Of a DNA stretch of 64,000 bases, positions 3,807-61,078 are shown piece after piece (within the stretch, counting starts at the first letter, position 1; each line of letters begins with the position of its first letter). The notes below the pieces were generated by a model, which was given only the letters and a program-made list of their open reading frames with translations, did no database searches and was not told the DNA's origin. The stretch spans positions 1,000-64,999 of the forward strand of contig JAFGSM010000080.1 of NCBI GenBank assembly GCA_016934595.1, given 5' to 3'. Origin of the DNA: a bacterium. Lineage in GTDB: Bacteria; SZUA-182; DTGQ01; JAFGSM01. A program made the translations under genes and the position numbers.

Positions 3807-5870
3807 ATGATTTATATCCAGAACATCAAAAAACATTTCGGGCACAAAACCATATTCGATAGCGCTTCAGCCCATATACCCCCTAAGACTAGAGTTGGCC
3901 TGGTGGGACCCAATGGCTCTGGGAAAACTACGCTCCTTCGGATCTTAACCGGTGAAGAGGAACTGGATGGCGGCGGTATCTTTATAAATAAAGGAGCCCG
4001 GGCCGGTTATCTCAAACAGGAGGTATGGGATAATCCAGACCGCGGCATTTTGGCAGAGACGCTGTCGGGTTTTCCTGATCTTCAAAAGATTGAACAGGGC
4101 CTGATAGAACTGGAACGGCAGATGGAGGGCAAATTTCTGCCTGACACCCTTGAAAAATATGGAGAGTTGCGTCATCTTTTTGAGATACAAGGCGGTTACG
4201 ATATAGAACATCAGGCCAAGTCATTGCTTTGCGGCATGGGTTTCCGTCCGGAGCAATTCGCTCAGCCCCTGCACCAGTTCTCAGGCGGTTGGATGATGCG
4301 CGTCTGTCTCGCTAAATTACTATTGGCCAAGCCCGATGTGCTTTTGCTGGATGAGCCAACGAACCATCTTGACCTGGAGACTATATTATGGCTTGAAAAT
4401 TTTTTGCTTGAATATCCTGGCACCATCGTGTTCACAACACACGACCAGGTATTTATGCAGAATGTGGCAGGGCGTATTCTGGAAATCAGCCGGTGCAAGT
4501 TGTTTACATTTATAGGAAGCTTCGAGGAATATGTGGAGGAAAAGGCTTCCAGGCAGGAACAGATCGAGGCCCAGTATAAAAACCAGCAGAAAAAGGTCGA
4601 ACAGCAGGAGCGTTTTATTGAGCGCTTCCGGTACAAGGCCACCAAGGCAAAGCAGGTGCAAAGCCGTATCAAAATGCTTCAGAAAAAGGAACGGGTGGAT
4701 ATGATAGAAGACACCCCGCGTGCGATGAAGATTCGCCTGCCCCAACCACCCCGGTCAGGTCAAAAGGTGGTGCATGTCTCAAATGTTACAAAAAAATACG
4801 GCGAGAAGACGGTCTATGAAGGGCTAAACCTTATCATCGAACGGGGTGAGAAGGCGGTGCTGGTTGGGCCGAACGGTGCAGGCAAATCTACACTCCTCAA
4901 GATTATAGCCGGAGTAATAGACATCCAGGCTGGAACCGTATCTTATGGCCACCAGGTCACAATGGATTACTACGCCCAGCATCAGCTCGAAACCCTGAAT
5001 CCGGATTTCAGCATACTGGAGGAATTGACGGCTGTGACACAGGACTTCACTCTTGAGAAACGCCGAAAACTATTAGGGGCATTCCTGTTCTCAGGCGAAG
5101 ATGTTTTTAAGCGCATCTCCATTTTGTCCGGCGGCGAAAAGGCACGAATCGCCCTGGTTAAAATGCTATGCCGGCCAATGAATTTCCTGGTCATGGATGA
5201 GCCTACCAATCACCTGGATATCCTTTCTCGTCAGGTACTTGAGGATGCGCTGTCAGACTATGATGGAACACTTGTTTTTATCTCCCATGACAGGGCATTT
5301 ATCAATTCCTTCGCAAACCGTGTTATCGAGATCAGGGATGGCAAACTGCACAGCTATCCAGGAAATTACGATGACTATGAATGGAAAAAAGCCCAGGAAA
5401 AACCACAAACACCTCTTGATCAAAAAATAAAAAACCGGCTGTCACCCGAATGCGTGGCCCCGGATATTCACGGCTCAAATTCTAATGAAAAGCCCATGAA
5501 TCTTAGATTCACAAAGGGGAATGAAAATATACAGAAGGGATTTTCAGATAAAAAAATCCCGGGCAAAAAAGACGGGCGTCGCGTGCGAGCCGAAAGGATA
5601 CAGGAAAAATCCAGGCGTCTAAAACCGCTTAAGGAGAAACTGGCTATTCTGGAAAAAGATATAGCAGCCCTGGAAGCAGAAAAAGAGGTAATCTCATCGG
5701 CAATATGCGACCCTAATATCATAAGCGATACTTCAGTCTATCCGCAAAAACTCAAAAGACACCGTGTCCTTGAGACAAGACTCCAAATATATTATGACGA
5801 ATGGGCAGAAACTTCCCAGCAGATAGAGGAAACCCTTTCAGAGTTTTCAGAGTTACAACCGGGTGATTAA
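3807..5870 (+). CDS. ABC-F family ATPase (EttA/Uup/YheS-like, two ABC domains) with an extended C-terminal tail
   Basis: Two Walker A motifs ([18 protein letters not shown]), two ABC signature motifs ([19 protein letters not shown]) and no TMDs. The C-terminal roughly 150 aa is a coiled-coil tail that contains an in-frame copy of the dispersed repeat (aa ...[23 protein letters not shown]...). Confidence 0.85.
5496..5560 (+). repeat. One unit of the dispersed structured repeat family, inserted in-frame in the ABC-F tail
   Basis: ATGAATCTTAGATTCACAAAGGGGAATGAAAATATACAGAAGGGATTTTCAGATAAAAAAAT matches the units at 58878, 14803 and 8911. It contains two palindromes: TGAATCTtAGATTCA and GAAAATatacagaagggATTTTC. 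Confidence 0.7.
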
Positions 5871-8910: not shown

Positions 8911-8990
8911 TCAATGAAACACTCATGCCTAAATTCGACACAAAGGAGAATGAAAATCCAAAACTATTTTCAGGTGAAAATCAGCGCAGA
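8911..8990 (+). repeat. One unit of the dispersed structured repeat family (intergenic)
   Basis: AATGAAACACTCATGCCTAAATTCGACACAAAGGAGAATGAAAATCCAAAACTATTTTCAGGTGAAAA is nearly identical to one unit (rc) inside the ydbH-like gene at about 14880-14935. It is open-reading-frame-like (MPKFDTKENENPKLFSGENQRRKIEIPK*). Confidence 0.7.
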
Positions 8991-9173
8991 AAAATAGAAA
9001 TCCCGAAGTGATAACTTCGAGGAGTAAAGGTTGATATTTTAGGCTTGTTTATCTATAATTACACGCGTTAATTATCTGCTAAGATTCCTATTTAAACAGG
9101 GAGTTTCATGAAGGATGTTCGGGTGGAATTAAAGCTTAACTTAAATGACATTGGATTGCGAATTCATACGACT

Positions 9174-9246
9174 GCGCCCGTAGCTCAGGGGACAGAGCGC
9201 AGCGCTCCGGACGCTGAAGCCGAAGGTTCAAGTCCTTCCGGGCGCA
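9174..9246 (+). tRNA. tRNA-Arg (anticodon CCG)
   Basis: Hand-folded cloverleaf. Acceptor GCGCCCG/CGGGCGC, D-stem GCTC/GAGC with a G18G19 loop, anticodon stem CAGCG/CGCTG, loop CTCCGGA (U33, CCG, G37), T-stem GAAGG/CCTTC and T-loop TTCAAGT, discriminator A. No encoded CCA. The six-frame ORF 9108..9302 is an artefact over this tRNA. Confidence 0.85.
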
Positions 9247-9269
9247 TAATTATTTCCTTAATTAACAAT

Positions 9270-12029: not shown

Positions 12030-13040
12030 ATGACACCTTGCTTTCACCCCAGGCTGGTCAATGGCCCTTTCCATGACCCTGCCTTATATATAGATTTCCT
12101 CTATCAAAACAGGGCCATCCTTTTTGATATAGGAGACATATCGGCGCTGACGACAAAACATATCCATAAAATCACGGATGTCTTTGTCACGCATACCCAC
12201 ATGGATCATTTCATAGGATTGGACTATCTGATAAGGCTATTTCTTGGCAGGGACAAGCGGCTTTCCATATACGGCCCCCCAAGGATAATCGATAATGTGG
12301 CAGGAAAGCTCTCGGCCTATACATGGAATCTGGTTGACAATTTTGAAAACAGTTTCGAGATCCATGTCTTTGAATCGCACACAGATCACATAGAAAAGGC
12401 GATTCTGAAATGCCATAACCTCTTCCAAAAGGAGATGTGCCTTGAAAAAGCGCCTTTCAAAGACAAACTCCTGGACGAAGATGAATTTAGCATCCATACG
12501 GCCTTTCTTGATCATTTTACACCATGCCTGACATTCTGTCTGAAAGAGAAGTCCCATATAAATATCAAAAAGGACGTATTGGACACACTTGGCCTGCCTT
12601 CCGGCCCGTGGCTAAACCAGTTGAAAACAGCGATAAGGCAGCAGGAGCCGGATAATTATCCGATAACGATCAAGGCCAAGAGTTCGGATGATTCTCAGGG
12701 GCAGAAGACTACCCTGGGCTGGGTCAAACAAAAAGGCCTTTTCACAATTTCACAGGGGCAAAAGATAGCCTATGTTACAGATATAGGGTACACACAGGAA
12801 AATATATCCAGGTTAACCTCTTTTGCAATGGATGCGGACTATCTGTTTTGCGAGGCCGCATTCCTTGAAGAAGACAGCCAATTAGCGAAAAAGAAATGCC
12901 ATCTTACAGCGCATCAGGCAGGGCTGATAGCCAGACAGGCAAATGCAAGGAAACTTATCCCTTTCCATTTTTCCCCAAGATATCAGGGCAGGGAAGACCT
13001 TATTTACAAAGAGGCTGAAAGGTCCTTTACTTCTTCATAA
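12030..13040 (+). CDS. MBL-fold metallo-hydrolase (RNase Z/ElaC-like)
   Basis: Contains the HxHxDH motif (VTHTHMDHFIGLDYL) and downstream His/Asp ligands (DHF..., H at TAHQAG) typical of the metallo-beta-lactamase superfamily. Confidence 0.65.
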   Translation: MTPCFHPRLVNGPFHDPALYIDFLYQNRAILFDIGDISALTTKHIHKITDVFVTHTHMDHFIGLDYLIRLFLGRDKRLSIYGPPRIIDNVAGKLSAYTWNLVDNFENSFEIHVFESHTDHIEKAILKCHNLFQKEMCLEKAPFKDKLLDEDEFSIHTAFLDHFTPCLTFCLKEKSHINIKKDVLDTLGLPSGPWLNQLKTAIRQQEPDNYPITIKAKSSDDSQGQKTTLGWVKQKGLFTISQGQKIAYVTDIGYTQENISRLTSFAMDADYLFCEAAFLEEDSQLAKKKCHLTAHQAGLIARQANARKLIPFHFSPRYQGREDLIYKEAERSFTSS

Positions 13041-13635
13041 CCCAAGCGCCATCCTCTTGCTGTATCCACCAACCGGCAGGAGTACTTTTTTGCCAGCTTT
13101 TGGAAAATATCCTTTGTATCTCTTCCATATGCTCTGGCCCTAAGTTGTTTGCCTTCAGTATCTCCTCATATAACAACTTGCGATCCTTGTTTTCATCATC
13201 AACCAGGCGCATCAGATTCGACTTTTCTTTTAATCCAAGCCCCTGCAACTCACGTGCTTCGATCAGTCCCCTGTTTGTCTCCCCTATCCTGCCTGACTCA
13301 TAAAAAGGCCTTAAGCCTGAAAACCTGTTCTTTAAAGACTCCTTTAAAGAACGGATTGCTGGCGTTGTCACCTCAATATCCATTGCAGCATACGCAGCCG
13401 TGACAAATATGGCAAAATCATTCGTCCTGTTGCGAAGCATTGTTTCCTTATCCCCGCCCCCTGAAGGGGCCTCATCTGTTCGTGTATTATCCGTTCCACC
13501 TCCCCTTACCTCACCTACGATCTCATCAGCAGCCTTCTGGACCTCTGCTGCCGGAAAATATATGTTGACAGTCACACATGCAGCCACAACAAACAAAAAC
13601 ATAACGCATAGGACAACAATCCTTTTCTCTGACAT
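13027..13635 (-). CDS. YdbL-like periplasmic protein (DUF1318)
   Basis: Signal peptide plus the conserved DDENKDRKLLYEEILKAN motif of DUF1318/YdbL. It lies directly downstream of an AsmA/YdbH-like gene, as in the E. coli ydbH-ynbE-ydbL operon (no ynbE is visible here). Confidence 0.55.
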   Translation of the reverse strand: MSEKRIVVLCVMFLFVVAACVTVNIYFPAAEVQKAADEIVGEVRGGGTDNTRTDEAPSGGGDKETMLRNRTNDFAIFVTAAYAAMDIEVTTPAIRSLKESLKNRFSGLRPFYESGRIGETNRGLIEARELQGLGLKEKSNLMRLVDDENKDRKLLYEEILKANNLGPEHMEEIQRIFSKSWQKSTPAGWWIQQEDGAWVMKK

Positions 13636-13740
13636 CTTCCAATCCCCCTTTCGATTTTTGAATCCATTATCTCTTCATTGATCGCCTCGTAAAAAGCCGA
13701 TATTACCCTTCCTGTCATTGTGAAATGAATAGACCTCCTG

Positions 13741-15192
13741 CTAATTGACCTTTACTGCCGTACCCCTGTCCTCGAAAATCCTGTTGATCCTTTCCCTCAT
13801 ATCCTTAAAGCTTATTATGTTATCAGGGTTCTGATTGACCATATCGATCCCGCGGAAAAGCCCTTTTCTTATAATAAACTCCTGGCCGTCCTCCTGAATA
13901 AGCCCCCTCAGTGAAAAGATATCGTTTCTTAGCTCGCACCTGAACCCTATTTTTGAGTATGGATAATAGGAAAAAAATCTGTTTAATCCGGAATTAAGAA
14001 CACTCTGAACACCGGAAGACCCTGTGCCGATCATGGAGAGGTTATTAATGGCATCCACGCTGATCTTCTGCCTTACCCCTTTCTGTTTAACCGATTCCAC
14101 CTCCATCAAAAACCTTGCAGGCTGACCATATTCTATCACAAAATCGGTCAACTTTCCTTTGATAACACCGCTGATCTTGCCGATGGGAACCCTTTCTGTC
14201 AGCTTATCAAGCCCTATGCCATCCCAAAAGATAGACCCGCCCAGCCTTCTCCCCTGGCTGAAGGGCATCTCAAGATAAATATCCTTGATATCTAAACCTC
14301 CTCCGAATATTTCAGCATAAAGCGAGCCTGTAAAATCGATCCTGTCATTCTTATATGTCAGATGAGGTATATCTCCATCCAATCGCCCGGATACAGGAAA
14401 ACCTGATCCCTTTGAAATCGTCATCAGATCCAATGCCTTAATGCCTATGGATGCCTGGAAAACAGCGTTTTTGGAGATTATCTCCGCGCCGCTCAGCTCC
14501 CTCAAAAAGACTTCCCCACCGAAGATATTTATATAGACAGGGTCCTTTATCTGGAAACGGTTTTGAGAAAACATGGGATGCAGCTCCAAGTCATCATAAA
14601 ATCCATTTAGCCAGGAAACCTTCTTGATACGGATGACCCCTGAACGTCCATCTGTGAATGGCCCCTGTTCACAGAATGAAGACGCTGCAAGTTCTAAAGG
14701 CAATTCTATAGTCAGTCCAGAGATGGAGATTTCACAGGCAGGTATATCTATTGATGGAAAAGATGCCTTCCATTCGCCGCTAAGCCTCCAACCGCCACTT
14801 TCATCTGAAAATCCCTTCTGGGTATTTTCATTCCCCATTGTGAATCTAAAATTCATGGGCGTTTCACCTGAAAATAGTTTTGGATTTTCATTCTCCTTTG
14901 TGCCGAATTTAGGCATGAGTGTTTCATCTATCATCGCCCTTAGTTTAAAAACAGAGCATCCCGATATATTAATCCCCTGTAAAGCAGGCGGTCCCTGTTC
15001 ATTGCCTTCCGCGATGATAAAACCGAGGAGAGCGGAATGGTTGATGCCAGACGTCTTTGTCTCTAAATCAAGAGACAATCCCTTTTGATCCATTTTTATC
15101 TGAAACCGCAGGCCCCCGATCTCTAAAATATCCAGAACCCCTTTAGACTCTAAACGCTGAAAGTTTGCAAAAAAAAACCGCTTAAATCCCAC
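13741..15192 (-). CDS. YdbH/AsmA-family protein, C-terminal fragment (same gene as 15150..16550 after a +1T correction)
   Basis: Inserting one T in the T9 run (plus-strand A9 at about 15170-15178) joins ...WDLSGFF to FANFQRLESKG... in one frame, giving about 940 aa, comparable to E. coli YdbH. It contains two in-frame repeat units (...MPKFGTKENENPKLFSGETPMNFRFTMGNENTQKGFSDE...). Confidence 0.6.
   Translation of the reverse strand: MGFKRFFFANFQRLESKGVLDILEIGGLRFQIKMDQKGLSLDLETKTSGINHSALLGFIIAEGNEQGPPALQGINISGCSVFKLRAMIDETLMPKFGTKENENPKLFSGETPMNFRFTMGNENTQKGFSDESGGWRLSGEWKASFPSIDIPACEISISGLTIELPLELAASSFCEQGPFTDGRSGVIRIKKVSWLNGFYDDLELHPMFSQNRFQIKDPVYINIFGGEVFLRELSGAEIISKNAVFQASIGIKALDLMTISKGSGFPVSGRLDGDIPHLTYKNDRIDFTGSLYAEIFGGGLDIKDIYLEMPFSQGRRLGGSIFWDGIGLDKLTERVPIGKISGVIKGKLTDFVIEYGQPARFLMEVESVKQKGVRQKISVDAINNLSMIGTGSSGVQSVLNSGLNRFFSYYPYSKIGFRCELRNDIFSLRGLIQEDGQEFIIRKGLFRGIDMVNQNPDNIISFKDMRERINRIFEDRGTAVKVN
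14803..14935 (-). repeat. Two tandem units of the dispersed structured repeat family, in-frame inside the ydbH-like gene
   Basis: The reverse complement reads ...TGAAACACTCATGCCTAAATTCGGCACAAAGGAGAATGAAAATCCAAAACTATTTTCAGGTGAAACGCCCATGAATTTTAGATTCACAATGGGGAATGAAAATACCCAGAAGGGATTTTCAGATGAAA... One unit is nearly identical to the intergenic copy at 8911-8990. Confidence 0.7.
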
Positions 15193-16550
15193 GAAACAGA
15201 GCGCCCGGACAAGTCTTTATATATTGTACCCCAAAGATATTCGCCGTTTTTAATATCTCCATGAGTTCTGAATGTAACCTTGTCATCCGTCGTCTGGGGC
15301 TGGGGATAAACCAGGTCCAGGTTAACATTCAGTTCGATCCCCTCGCCCGCCTTTGTGCCGTCATTGGAACTGAACCCTCCATCCTTTACCTTAATCTCCA
15401 GCCCCCCTTCGAATGTCCATTTCTCCTGCATCCTCATCCCTGTGAGTTGGACGCTGGCATCCCCTCTTCCCTTTACATCCCAAAGATTATTACCTTGGTC
15501 CAAAAACGGACCTATTATTTCAGTCAATCCTGTGATAAAAAAATCCCTTGTAAAAAGCGCAGCCCTGCTGGAACACCCCTCCTTAAAACAAACATCCATA
15601 TGCCCATCAATAACACCCATCTCCGGCGCTTCTGCCTTAAAACCTCTTATGCTCAAGGCCCCCCTTTGCAAATCATATACAATATCCGCATGGATATTAA
15701 TGCCTTTAAGCGCAGGGATATTACCCCCGTCGATCTGAATGCCATTTAACCCCATGTTCACGTCTGGAAGACTTATCTTCTGCGCATCGATAAAGACTCC
15801 GCAATCAAGGCGCATACCCTCTATTGATACGCCTTTTATTGTAATGCCAGAAAGGGATAAGGAAAAGTGCCCGCTGCCTGATAAAACCTGCGAAAGGGGT
15901 GCAAGATTGAGTGTCAACTCTATCTGCCCGGACGTACAGGATAAAAGCGAGGGAGGACATACCTGTAATGCCCCTTTTAAAAAGACCCTGCCCCCTGTGT
16001 CAGCGCCCATATCCCGAACCTCAACAACGGCGTCTTTCAGCTCCAAGATGCCCAGACTGTCGGAAATCTTGATGGAAAAGGCCCCGCCCTTTATATCCAT
16101 CTTCCTTATATACGGCATCTTTCTAATAATATCCTGCAAACGAGAAAAAGCCTGATTGGCATCTAAATGCCCATCACCGGAGGATCTGTCTTTTGAAGAT
16201 TTATTTTTTACAGCATCAGGCATTACATCCAATGCTATATCAGGCTTATAAAATACAAGGTCTACAATCTCGGGCCTGAAGCCGCTTCCGATCCTGCCGT
16301 CAAAGTTAACCGTCTCCACCTCTGCCCTTGCAGAGAGGCCGTCATCCCTCTTTATGGAAAGGCGTTCTATGTTCCCTTCCAATCCGGGTCTTAACGCAAA
16401 ACCTTTCGCATTCAGGGAAATACCGTATTTCAAACGCAGAACATATCCAAGGATATTGACAGGGATGGGGGTAAAGAAAAAAAGGGACACGCAAGCACAA
16501 AAAACTGCGGATAAAAAAATGGCTGTTATTACTATCTTTCTTTTATGCAT
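15150..16550 (-). CDS. YdbH/AsmA-family protein, N-terminal fragment (frameshifted; continues in 13741..15192)
   Basis: An N-terminal signal anchor is followed by long beta-rich repetitive sequence typical of AsmA-like/TamB-like lipid-transfer proteins. Its stop overlaps the next ORF at a T9 homopolymer. Confidence 0.6.
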   Translation of the reverse strand: MHKRKIVITAIFLSAVFCACVSLFFFTPIPVNILGYVLRLKYGISLNAKGFALRPGLEGNIERLSIKRDDGLSARAEVETVNFDGRIGSGFRPEIVDLVFYKPDIALDVMPDAVKNKSSKDRSSGDGHLDANQAFSRLQDIIRKMPYIRKMDIKGGAFSIKISDSLGILELKDAVVEVRDMGADTGGRVFLKGALQVCPPSLLSCTSGQIELTLNLAPLSQVLSGSGHFSLSLSGITIKGVSIEGMRLDCGVFIDAQKISLPDVNMGLNGIQIDGGNIPALKGINIHADIVYDLQRGALSIRGFKAEAPEMGVIDGHMDVCFKEGCSSRAALFTRDFFITGLTEIIGPFLDQGNNLWDVKGRGDASVQLTGMRMQEKWTFEGGLEIKVKDGGFSSNDGTKAGEGIELNVNLDLVYPQPQTTDDKVTFRTHGDIKNGEYLWGTIYKDLSGRSVSWDLSGFFLQTFSV

Positions 16551-26769: not shown

Positions 26770-27210
26770 TTACAGCCCCTTCACAATCTTCCAGCCTCCA
26801 TCCTCCTTCCTAAGAAAGATCTGTTCCTTTCCCCTGGCGCGGTCTCTTTTAGCGCCGGCAAAAAAAACAATCTCATAATCCTCAACAAGCATGGCCTTTT
26901 GACCTTCCAAATAGACCGTCCTTTTTGATGTCAAAAAATCTATCATTTCAAAGACCTCAAAGTTTTTCTGCATCCTTTCCCTTACCACATCAAAGGAGTC
27001 TTCTCTGTCTTTGTAATCTTTGGATATGCATGTCATATAAAGGTCTATGTCCTTTTCCCTTATAGCCTTTTCTCTGATGGACATAACTTGATTTATCGCC
27101 TTTTCCGCCTCTGCGCTTGATCGATCTGTAGATGCGCAGCCTGCAAAAAAGGCCACAAAAAACATGAGGGGGATGGTTATGGTATTTATTCGGGCTCGAT
27201 ATCTTTGCAT
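26770..27210 (-). CDS. Hypothetical lipoprotein (NTF2/SnoaL-like fold plausible)
   Basis: Signal peptide with lipobox FFAGC. Small alpha+beta protein; no confident family. Confidence 0.35.
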   Translation of the reverse strand: MQRYRARINTITIPLMFFVAFFAGCASTDRSSAEAEKAINQVMSIREKAIREKDIDLYMTCISKDYKDREDSFDVVRERMQKNFEVFEMIDFLTSKRTVYLEGQKAMLVEDYEIVFFAGAKRDRARGKEQIFLRKEDGGWKIVKGL

Positions 27211-60235: not shown

Positions 60236-61078
60236 ATGGAAATCGAAATAGCAAGCAAATCGGGTTTTTGTTTTGGCGTACAAAGGGCTGTTGATATAGC
60301 CTTTAAGCTGGGATGCAAGTACTCTAAAGGGGTATATACTCTGGGGCCTATAATACATAATCCCAAGGTTGTTGAACAACTTGAAAAAGCCTCTGTCCAC
60401 ATGCTTAACGATATAGACAACATAAAATCAGGGATACTTATTGTTAGATCTCATGGATTGCCGCCAAACATCATAGACGAGGCAAAAAAAAAGGGCCTTA
60501 AGGTTGTAGATGCTACGTGTCCTTTTGTTAAAAAGGTTCAAACCTATGCAATATCGCTCAAGGAAAAAGGTTATCCTGTATTGCTTATCGGTGATAAAAA
60601 TCATCCGGAGGTCATAGCCATAAGAGGATATGTTAATGATGAGATCATAATCTGTGAATCCGTCAATGACCTTAACAAATTGGATATTCCTCCCAAACTG
60701 GGTGTTGTTGCGCAGACCACTCAAGACTATGAAAAATTCAAAACGATAGTCACTAATTTGCTTGATTGTGTGAGGGAACTAAAGGTTTACAACACTATTT
60801 GTGATTCTACAGTTGTTAGGCAGCAGTCCGCTCTCAAACTTGCCAAAAAGGTAGACTTGATGTTCGTGATAGGAGGGAAAAACAGCGCCAATACGAACCG
60901 GCTATCAAATATATGCAGCATTGTAAATCCAAAAACTCATTTAATAGAATCTTCGGAAGAGATCGATGAAAAATGGCTTGATAGCATTTCTAAGATAGGA
61001 ATTACCGCAGGGGCATCAACACCAAAATGGATTATAGATGATGTTGTTGAAAGGCTTAAAAATATTTCTATAAATTAG
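60236..61078 (+). CDS. ispH: 4-hydroxy-3-methylbut-2-enyl diphosphate reductase
   Basis: MEIEIASKSGFCFGVQRAV (first Fe-S Cys), and later conserved Cys at ...DATCPFV... and ...YNTICDST..., the canonical three-Cys pattern of IspH/LytB. Confidence 0.9.
   Translation: MEIEIASKSGFCFGVQRAVDIAFKLGCKYSKGVYTLGPIIHNPKVVEQLEKASVHMLNDIDNIKSGILIVRSHGLPPNIIDEAKKKGLKVVDATCPFVKKVQTYAISLKEKGYPVLLIGDKNHPEVIAIRGYVNDEIIICESVNDLNKLDIPPKLGVVAQTTQDYEKFKTIVTNLLDCVRELKVYNTICDSTVVRQQSALKLAKKVDLMFVIGGKNSANTNRLSNICSIVNPKTHLIESSEEIDEKWLDSISKIGITAGASTPKWIIDDVVERLKNISIN

Follow-up and report, generated by a model that had tools for sequence, protein, structure and literature searches.

The stretch of DNA analysed here (the window) comprises 64,000 nucleotides (nt) of contig JAFGSM010000080.1 from the bacterial assembly GCA_016934595.1 (positions 1,000 to 64,999, forward strand) and carries on its minus strand a gene for a putative envelope protein that occupies a pair of open reading frames (ORFs) that overlap. 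ORF1 (15150..16550, zero frame) encodes 466 amino acids (aa), comprising an N-terminal membrane anchor and the first half of a predicted β-groove. ORF2, delimited mechanically from a GTG start (13741..15192), encodes 483 aa beginning MGFKRFFFANFQRLESKG. NCBI annotates the two as the hypothetical proteins JXL19_04255 and JXL19_04250, respectively. They overlap by 43 nt (15150-15192), and within the overlap lies a run of nine Ts (T9; A9 on the plus strand) at 15169-15177. The upstream frame reads GGT TTT TTT TTG CAA across the run and closes at a TAG (15150-15152) eight codons beyond the second T, giving the C-terminal end ...SWDLSGFFLQTFSV; the downstream frame, which is -1 relative to that of ORF1, reads CGG TTT TTT TTT GCA AAC. 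Insertion of one T, or a -1 slip, yields a 936-aa ORF with no internal stop (...WDLSGFFFANFQRLESKG...), in which the -1-frame part from the T run to the stop (13741..15177) supplies residues 467-936 and the second half of the groove, including the most conserved C-terminal block (IEYGQP...SVDAI...GTGS...FF.YPYSKIGF...NQNPDN.ISF.DM.ERI). The full-length product is predicted to contain the junction peptide ...DLSGFFFANFQR, and the short product to end in ...DLSGFFLQTFSV. The initial annotation had described two ORFs overlapping by 43 nt at a nine-T homopolymer and their fusion by an added T into a protein of about 940 aa, both of which the window letters and ORF coordinates confirm; the position it gave for the run, about 15170-15178, was off by one base.

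In itself the T9 run is unremarkable, and the junction of two frames at it is a real feature. By our own estimate from base composition, about one A or T run of nine would be expected in 64 kb, and two were observed. The second, an A9 at 60484-60492 (plus strand), sits in frame inside ispH/lytB (60236..61078), which is intact and has a full-length Pfam match, so that this genome tolerates a slippage-prone run in a normally essential gene.

Single-protein homologues of 839-876 aa cover 95-100% of the fused protein at 27-28% identity; since the alignment continues unbroken through the junction, ORF1 and ORF2 are the halves of one ancestral gene. In the family alignment, a near-invariant GEYLWG motif lies 25 residues upstream of the junction and an invariant Asp 10 residues downstream, and among the 3,081 family representatives retrieved by an exhaustive profile search the best were overwhelmingly full length. 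The AlphaFold2 model of the fused protein (predicted local distance difference test, pLDDT, 73) opens with a helix at the N terminus (residues 3-26) and continues in about 45 β-strands, the ORF1 part providing the helix and the strands up to residue 461. The junction residues FFF (467-469, local pLDDT about 77) open strand 467-474 directly after the hairpin turn that follows strand 451-461, so the model places the junction inside a sheet and not at a domain boundary. The predicted fold is an AsmA-like repeating β-groove ("taco"), with an N-terminal membrane anchor and a long continuous groove, and the protein presumably functions in lipid transport. No usable match to Pfam or NCBIfam was obtained with either half or with the fused protein, and a profile search of PDB sequences returned nothing. 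Weak matches to the AsmA clan of Pfam were found in the homologues, with DUF748 in 8 of 12 (best 2.5e-5) and YhdP, YdbH-like, TamB and AsmA once each.

The out-of-frame T9 is shared by six lineages, hereafter clade B: the window, L008, L009 (GCA_043802115.1), L010 (GCA_975972645.1), L011/L012 (two runs, identical sequence) and L013, drawn from NCBI metagenome-assembled genomes (MAGs) and, for four further runs, from Logan assemblies. The T9 of the window recurs in an independent Logan assembly, that of run SRR13394437, which matches the window at 100% identity over 7.9 kb. Within the family, the profile search recovered P0101, a 438-aa protein beginning MGIKRFFFVNSKRL, with the same out-of-frame start as ORF2 of the window. 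Its contig, L008, comes from a different run and carries ORFs of 461 and 438 aa that overlap at ...AAAGG TTTTTTTTT GTAAAC and are followed by a DUF1318 gene. Searching with P0101 yielded four more proteins corresponding to the C half only, on L009, L010, L011/L012 and L013, and in each of these loci an ORF lies upstream, the homologous codon carries exactly T9 and the reading continues in the -1 frame. T9 was present in 7/7 assemblies across the six lineages, which form a monophyletic group in 100/100 neighbour-joining (NJ) bootstraps. The word-indexed protein search with the fused protein gave only homologues of 24-38% identity, the clade B relatives surfacing in the exhaustive profile search; scans of genome and metagenome contigs with the same query gave only distant Syntrophus loci (31-32%), and no further lineage came from querying with the N half of L008. 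As a peculiarity of L009, the N-terminal ORF is shorter (385 aa), a Y1 (IS200-like) transposase ORF (2526-2837) adjoins the AsmA-like gene at its 5' end or overlaps it there, and an extra in-frame T8 (3863-3870) lies 22 nt upstream of T9.

In the DNA alignment of the six lineages, all nine Ts are invariant, as is the G in front of them, and the flanks vary; a purine always follows the run. For the C part, amino acid identity among the lineages is 44-56%; for the N part it is 32-41%. The proportion of synonymous differences (pS) is saturated at 0.67-0.83, and that of nonsynonymous differences (pN) is 0.27-0.43, in both halves; between the window and L008, the values are pN 0.36 and pS 0.72 for ORF1, and pN 0.29 and pS 0.70 for the -1 part. 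With a tenth T inserted, each of the six loci reads as a single ORF of 839-960 aa, free of further stops and indels, and the window protein keeps family-conserved residues (0.50/0.67) much as the equally divergent intact homologue P0009 does (0.51/0.72). These comparisons show that both halves are under purifying selection. Outside the tract, only 74% of the Phe codons in clade B genes are TTT, and because T9 is nevertheless invariant amid saturated synonymous sites, the alignment indicates that selection acts on the nucleotides of the run. What exceeds chance is this conservation, not the mere presence of T9.

The frame change can be confined further. In L013 the -1 frame is closed by a TAG immediately before T9, and in L008 the zero frame ends at a TAA immediately after TTG; on these limits, the run is the only shift window common to all lineages. 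In all six, the zero frame is closed 3-10 codons beyond the run's second T. For the -1 frame, neither a start codon conserved among these lineages nor a Shine-Dalgarno (SD) motif is present: L010 has no ATG, GTG or TTG in this frame for 43 codons after the run, and the window and L008 carry an NTG codon five codons upstream of it. Yet amino acid conservation in the -1 frame, and homology to the single-chain relatives, begins at the run itself (FFF[AVT][NKQG][SF]...G.LDIL), which argues against independent translation of the second half. Using RNAalifold, we detected 0 conserved pairs within about 110 nt on either side of the run, and single-sequence folding gave a z of 0.5; neither an upstream hairpin of the intrinsic-terminator type nor an Rfam family was found at the run. 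The lack of RNA structure is compatible with slippage, which needs only the homopolymer.

A second group of homologues, clade A (L014/L015, L017 and L018), has exactly T9 at the homologous codons (AAT/AGT TTT TTT TTG), here in frame (x-F-F-L) and within uninterrupted ORFs (L014 812-820, L017 483-491, L018 301-309). Because T9 is the in-frame state in these genomes, short-read assemblies do not systematically miscall T10 as T9. Clade A is separately monophyletic, with pairwise synonymous divergence (dS) of 1.1-2.1. Its alternative frames close within 0-36 codons, where slipped transcripts would terminate, and the run may therefore be a slippage site here too, giving truncated isoforms. The homologous site has no run in the more distant relatives L001 (Syntrophus) and L016. 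We considered clade A as the sister of clade B with T9 ancestral to both, a grouping that obtained 0/100 NJ bootstraps and is unsupported. As the two T9 clades stand apart in the NJ tree and distant relatives are without the run, T9 was either ancestral and lost elsewhere or acquired convergently.

Functional recoding of some kind at T9 is, in our judgement, very probable. Programmed frameshifting was not among the three causes first proposed for this locus, namely a sequencing or assembly error, a pseudogene and phase variation. Among what the initial annotation held would refute its reading were orthologues that are naturally two genes, and the six lineages, each with two ORFs, supply these. 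As to the mechanism, we lean towards transcriptional slippage on T9 in which one U is inserted, as happens in Shigella mxiE. RNA polymerase copying the A9 template would let the nascent U tract realign, and a fraction of the mRNAs would gain one U (U10). On unslipped U9 mRNA, ribosomes would stop eight codons beyond the second T of the run and release the 466-aa, inner-membrane-anchored N-terminal half; on U10 mRNA they would read through in what is the -1 frame of the DNA and produce the 936-aa protein (...SGFFFANFQ...), whose conserved C-terminal end presumably docks with the lipoprotein encoded downstream. Nine As or nine Ts are an established length for slippage, and conserved overlapping ORFs together with a conserved 9-mer have been taken as the criterion for its functional use (PMC1088944); slippage is highly efficient at nine As or Ts (PMC5009743). 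The locus has a run of at least nine at the junction, conservation of both the run and the ORF overlap, constraint on both parts and a fusion product homologous to single-ORF proteins. Transcriptional slippage is favoured because of the length of the 9-mer, the published criterion and the behaviour of U heptamers in Escherichia coli, where U_UUU_UUU and U_UUU_UUA shift far less readily than A_AAA_AAG (PMC5009743). We infer from the sequences that slippage occurs and that it does so at the level of RNA rather than of the ribosome, a choice of level that draws on indirect arguments; the ratio of the two products and the lipid-transport function are inferred as well.

Several observations weigh against transcriptional slippage or narrow what it can claim. 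U_UUU_UUU and U_UUU_UUR, both of them slippery heptamers for -1 ribosomal shifting and both in phase, are also contained in the run; the sequence alone does not separate an RNA-level from a ribosomal mechanism. The in-frame A9 in the intact ispH/lytB gene means that slippage at 9-mers in this organism is either modest or tolerated. Moreover, the six lineages inherit one ancestral frameshift event, which speaks for long-term maintenance and not for repeated origin, and all of them are from uncultured bacteria.

Programmed -1 ribosomal frameshifting, which we regard as possible and rather unlikely, would generate the same two products from a faithful U9 mRNA, with tRNA-Phe/tRNA-Phe (on U_UUU_UUU) or tRNA-Phe/tRNA-Leu (on U_UUU_UUR) in the P and A sites slipping back by one base. 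The zero frame xGU UUU UUU UUR supplies two in-phase X_XXY_YYZ heptamers, the run is always followed by a purine and, close behind, by a zero-frame stop in all lineages, and U_UUU_UUA is the shift site of human immunodeficiency virus (HIV) (PMC5009743). In most lineages a TGGGA/GGA motif (Trp-Asp/Glu codons) 9-12 nt upstream could mimic the SD-like stimulator of dnaX; however, the motif lies in conserved codons and its spacing is off by 3 nt in L009. No conserved stem-loop or pseudoknot follows the run, and both heptamers are of the type that is weak in E. coli relative to A_AAA_AAG (PMC5009743). Furthermore, a heptamer requires seven Ts, yet nine are invariant, which matches the 9-nt threshold for slippage.

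A naturally split gene is improbable. Here the C half would be made by internal initiation or reinitiation, and the halves would join by β-strand augmentation into one groove. The conservation of both ORFs under purifying selection is what such an arrangement would predict, separate proteins can extend AsmA-like grooves, as in YdbH-YnbE (PMC11126948), and the NTG codon five codons upstream of the run could serve as a start in the window and L008. The second frame nevertheless has no conserved start or SD motif; in L010 it is without a start for 43 codons and in L013 it opens only at the run. The onset of amino acid conservation at the run itself also speaks against this arrangement, which gives no reason for an invariant T9. 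In addition, neither a signal peptide nor a membrane anchor is present that would take the C half to the periplasm, and in the model this half begins inside a β-hairpin.

Slipped-strand phase variation, raised by the initial annotation, is highly improbable. Homopolymers of 9-10 nt are hypermutable and envelope genes are typical contingency loci; a DNA tract switching between T9 (OFF) and T10 (ON) would restore the frame in the longer state, with all sampled consensus sequences happening to be OFF. The tract is T9 in 7/7 assemblies of the six lineages, however, and searches of 5.8 billion and 1.84 billion cluster representatives revealed no fused clade B protein. The T9 of clade A is the in-frame state and equally invariant, and an OFF consensus in every population would be unexpected if the ON state were selected.

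An error of sequencing or assembly, or a recent inactivating mutation, is barely credible and can be set aside, even though a single homopolymer frameshift is most commonly of such origin and Pfam finds no domain in either half: the same T9 comes from independent assemblers and samples (seven assemblies in all), it is in frame in clade A, the frameshift is common to six lineages with saturated synonymous divergence in which both halves are intact and constrained, the window protein keeps conserved residues as P0009 does, and the other window genes are intact, including the one with an in-frame A9. A sporadic case does occur in the family: in the Syntrophus-like L016 (ENA contig_35, 166 kb), the homologue is split into ORFs of 386 and 488 aa at a G7 run (2493-2499) that is absent from relatives, probably through a sporadic frameshift or homopolymer error, in contrast to the conserved T9.

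The gene next downstream (13027..13635, minus strand), separated from the split gene by 105 nt (13636-13740), encodes a 202-aa lipoprotein with a C-terminal DUF1318 (YdbL-like) domain. Its match to DUF1318 (PF07027, E 2.9e-16) and to E. coli YdbL (BLASTP, 30% over 87 aa, E 1e-9) bears out the ydbL-like neighbour proposed initially. A DUF1318 gene also stands next after the AsmA-like gene in L001, L008, L011, L014, L016 and L017. At about 200 aa, the DUF1318 protein is twice the length of E. coli YdbL (further copies at 8293-8880 in L001 and 4445-5056 in L008). Its N-terminal module, C-VTVNIYFPAAEVQKAAD.IV, is highly conserved and near-identical in the window, L008 and Syntrophus buswellii, even though identity between the neighbouring AsmA-like proteins is only about 31%. 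The layout of this lipoprotein module (lipobox Cys, short β-strand, helix) recalls YnbE, and the DUF1318 protein may be a YnbE-YdbL fusion, without a sequence match to YnbE. No separate ynbE gene lies in the 105-nt gap, and no match to YnbE was obtained with Pfam or BLASTP.

Orthology of the window gene itself to ydbH is unsupported. Alignment of the family (A1) with E. coli YdbH using hhalign gave a non-significant E of 0.17 (probability 0.4%), the window protein has no Pfam match, and PF11739 matches 1/12 homologues plus P0172, a Syntrophus fragment. Of the AsmA/YdbH architecture and the ydbH-ynbE-ydbL layout suggested by the initial annotation, the AsmA-like groove (from the fold model) and the ydbL neighbour stand, and the YdbH similarity and ynbE do not. 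Like the E. coli YdbH-YnbE-YdbL system, the locus combines an inner-membrane-anchored AsmA-like β-groove protein of about 900 aa with a following DUF1318/YdbL gene (PMC11126948), and by analogy the protein may work in the manner of that intermembrane lipid bridge (PMC11126948; bioRxiv 10.64898/2026.03.16.712125). Unlike the E. coli system, the window has no significant match to YdbH or YnbE and no separate ynbE, its DUF1318 protein bears an extra N-terminal lipoprotein module, and its AsmA-like gene is interrupted, whereas E. coli ydbH is one uninterrupted ORF.

The window gene further contains an in-frame insertion of about 42 aa (14818..14946, minus strand; fusion residues 544-586) that is predicted to be disordered (pLDDT <50 in the AlphaFold2 model). 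It is missing from all homologues (alignment A1 columns 829-870) and from L008. Two in-frame repeat units had been reported in this gene; we found only a 19-nt imperfect direct repeat (89%, 14824-14842 and 14884-14902, 60 nt apart), which lies inside the lineage-specific insertion. A 66-nt segment of the insertion (14862-14927, minus strand) is identical at 65/66 positions to an intergenic segment on the opposite strand (8914-8979, plus), about 200 nt upstream of tRNA-Arg(CCG) (9173-9247). These are the only two copies in the window, their flanks are unrelated, and the Logan contig breaks at this repeat. The segment may be a small dispersed repeat, or the product of a recent duplication or gene conversion.

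The window as a whole has a GC content of 43.6% and ordinary gene density, and a split appearance is confined to the T9 gene. Two other candidates were examined and rejected: the trpB/trpA overlap, which joins ordinary adjacent genes, and an apparent in-frame stop at 26770-26772 (minus strand), where ordinary genes abut. At the latter site, the stop of a 146-aa SnoaL-like ORF is followed directly by the ATG of a family-5 solute-binding protein gene (TAA ATG).

As a tentative extension, T9 could long have served this AsmA-like subfamily as an isoform switch, ancient in origin and kept by selection, much like the one behind the tau and gamma products of dnaX, with the default and slipped products swapped between the two clades. 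If so, cells would need both an inner-membrane-anchored half-groove protein and the complete intermembrane bridge, in a ratio that RNA polymerase slippage would determine and that nucleoside triphosphate (NTP) pools or growth rate might tune. Should recoding be confirmed, loci now annotated as two hypothetical proteins, and easily mistaken for a pseudogene, ought to be annotated as one recoded gene. They would offer a natural system in which one gene provides a half-length and a full-length bridge, with bearing on the dosing and assembly of AsmA-like bridges, as well as a comparative pair (T9 in frame and out of frame) for the evolution of slippage sites. Single homopolymer frameshifts in MAGs should also be compared with relatives before they are dismissed.

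This kind of recoding is already known; here it would occur in a gene family in which our full-text literature searches found no report of it, namely AsmA-like lipid-bridge genes. Once mobile elements and phages are left aside, few cellular genes of bacteria are known to rely on either programmed frameshifting or transcriptional slippage. With E. coli dnaX, IS3-family transposases and the U_UUU_UUA site of HIV, the window locus has in common a heptamer of the X_XXY_YYZ type in phase, an extension in the -1 frame and a zero-frame stop close by. It differs from known -1 ribosomal sites in having no conserved downstream structure, a heptamer type that is weak in E. coli and nine conserved Ts.

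Among slippage systems, homopolymer frameshifts in endosymbionts are related as well. Genes disrupted at A/T homopolymers reportedly remain functional there through slippage, and such frameshifts are said to be maintainable by selection (Tamas et al. 2008, Wernegreen et al. 2010). A review mentions frameshifts in poly(A) tracts of Buchnera and Blochmannia that are rescued by polymerase infidelity (PMC5009743). Those genomes are AT-rich and reduced, with many sites, unlike the window, with its 43.6% GC and one affected gene.

Closer is dnaX of Thermus thermophilus, in which a conserved 9-nt homopolymer in a cellular gene gives rise to full-length and truncated isoforms, tau and gamma (PMC1088944; PMC5009743). 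Clade A would resemble it, standard decoding giving the full-length protein and slippage the truncated one. In clade B, by contrast, the default and slipped products would be swapped, and a need for the short isoform is only putative. The mechanistically closest case is mxiE of Shigella flexneri, where two overlapping ORFs (mxiEa and mxiEb) are fused by one non-templated U at a T run and slippage is needed for the longer product (PMC1088944; PMC5009743). Whereas mxiE encodes a plasmid-borne transcription activator of one genus, the gene described here is chromosomal, belongs to a deep uncultured clade and would apply the same kind of slippage to an envelope protein of about 900 aa.

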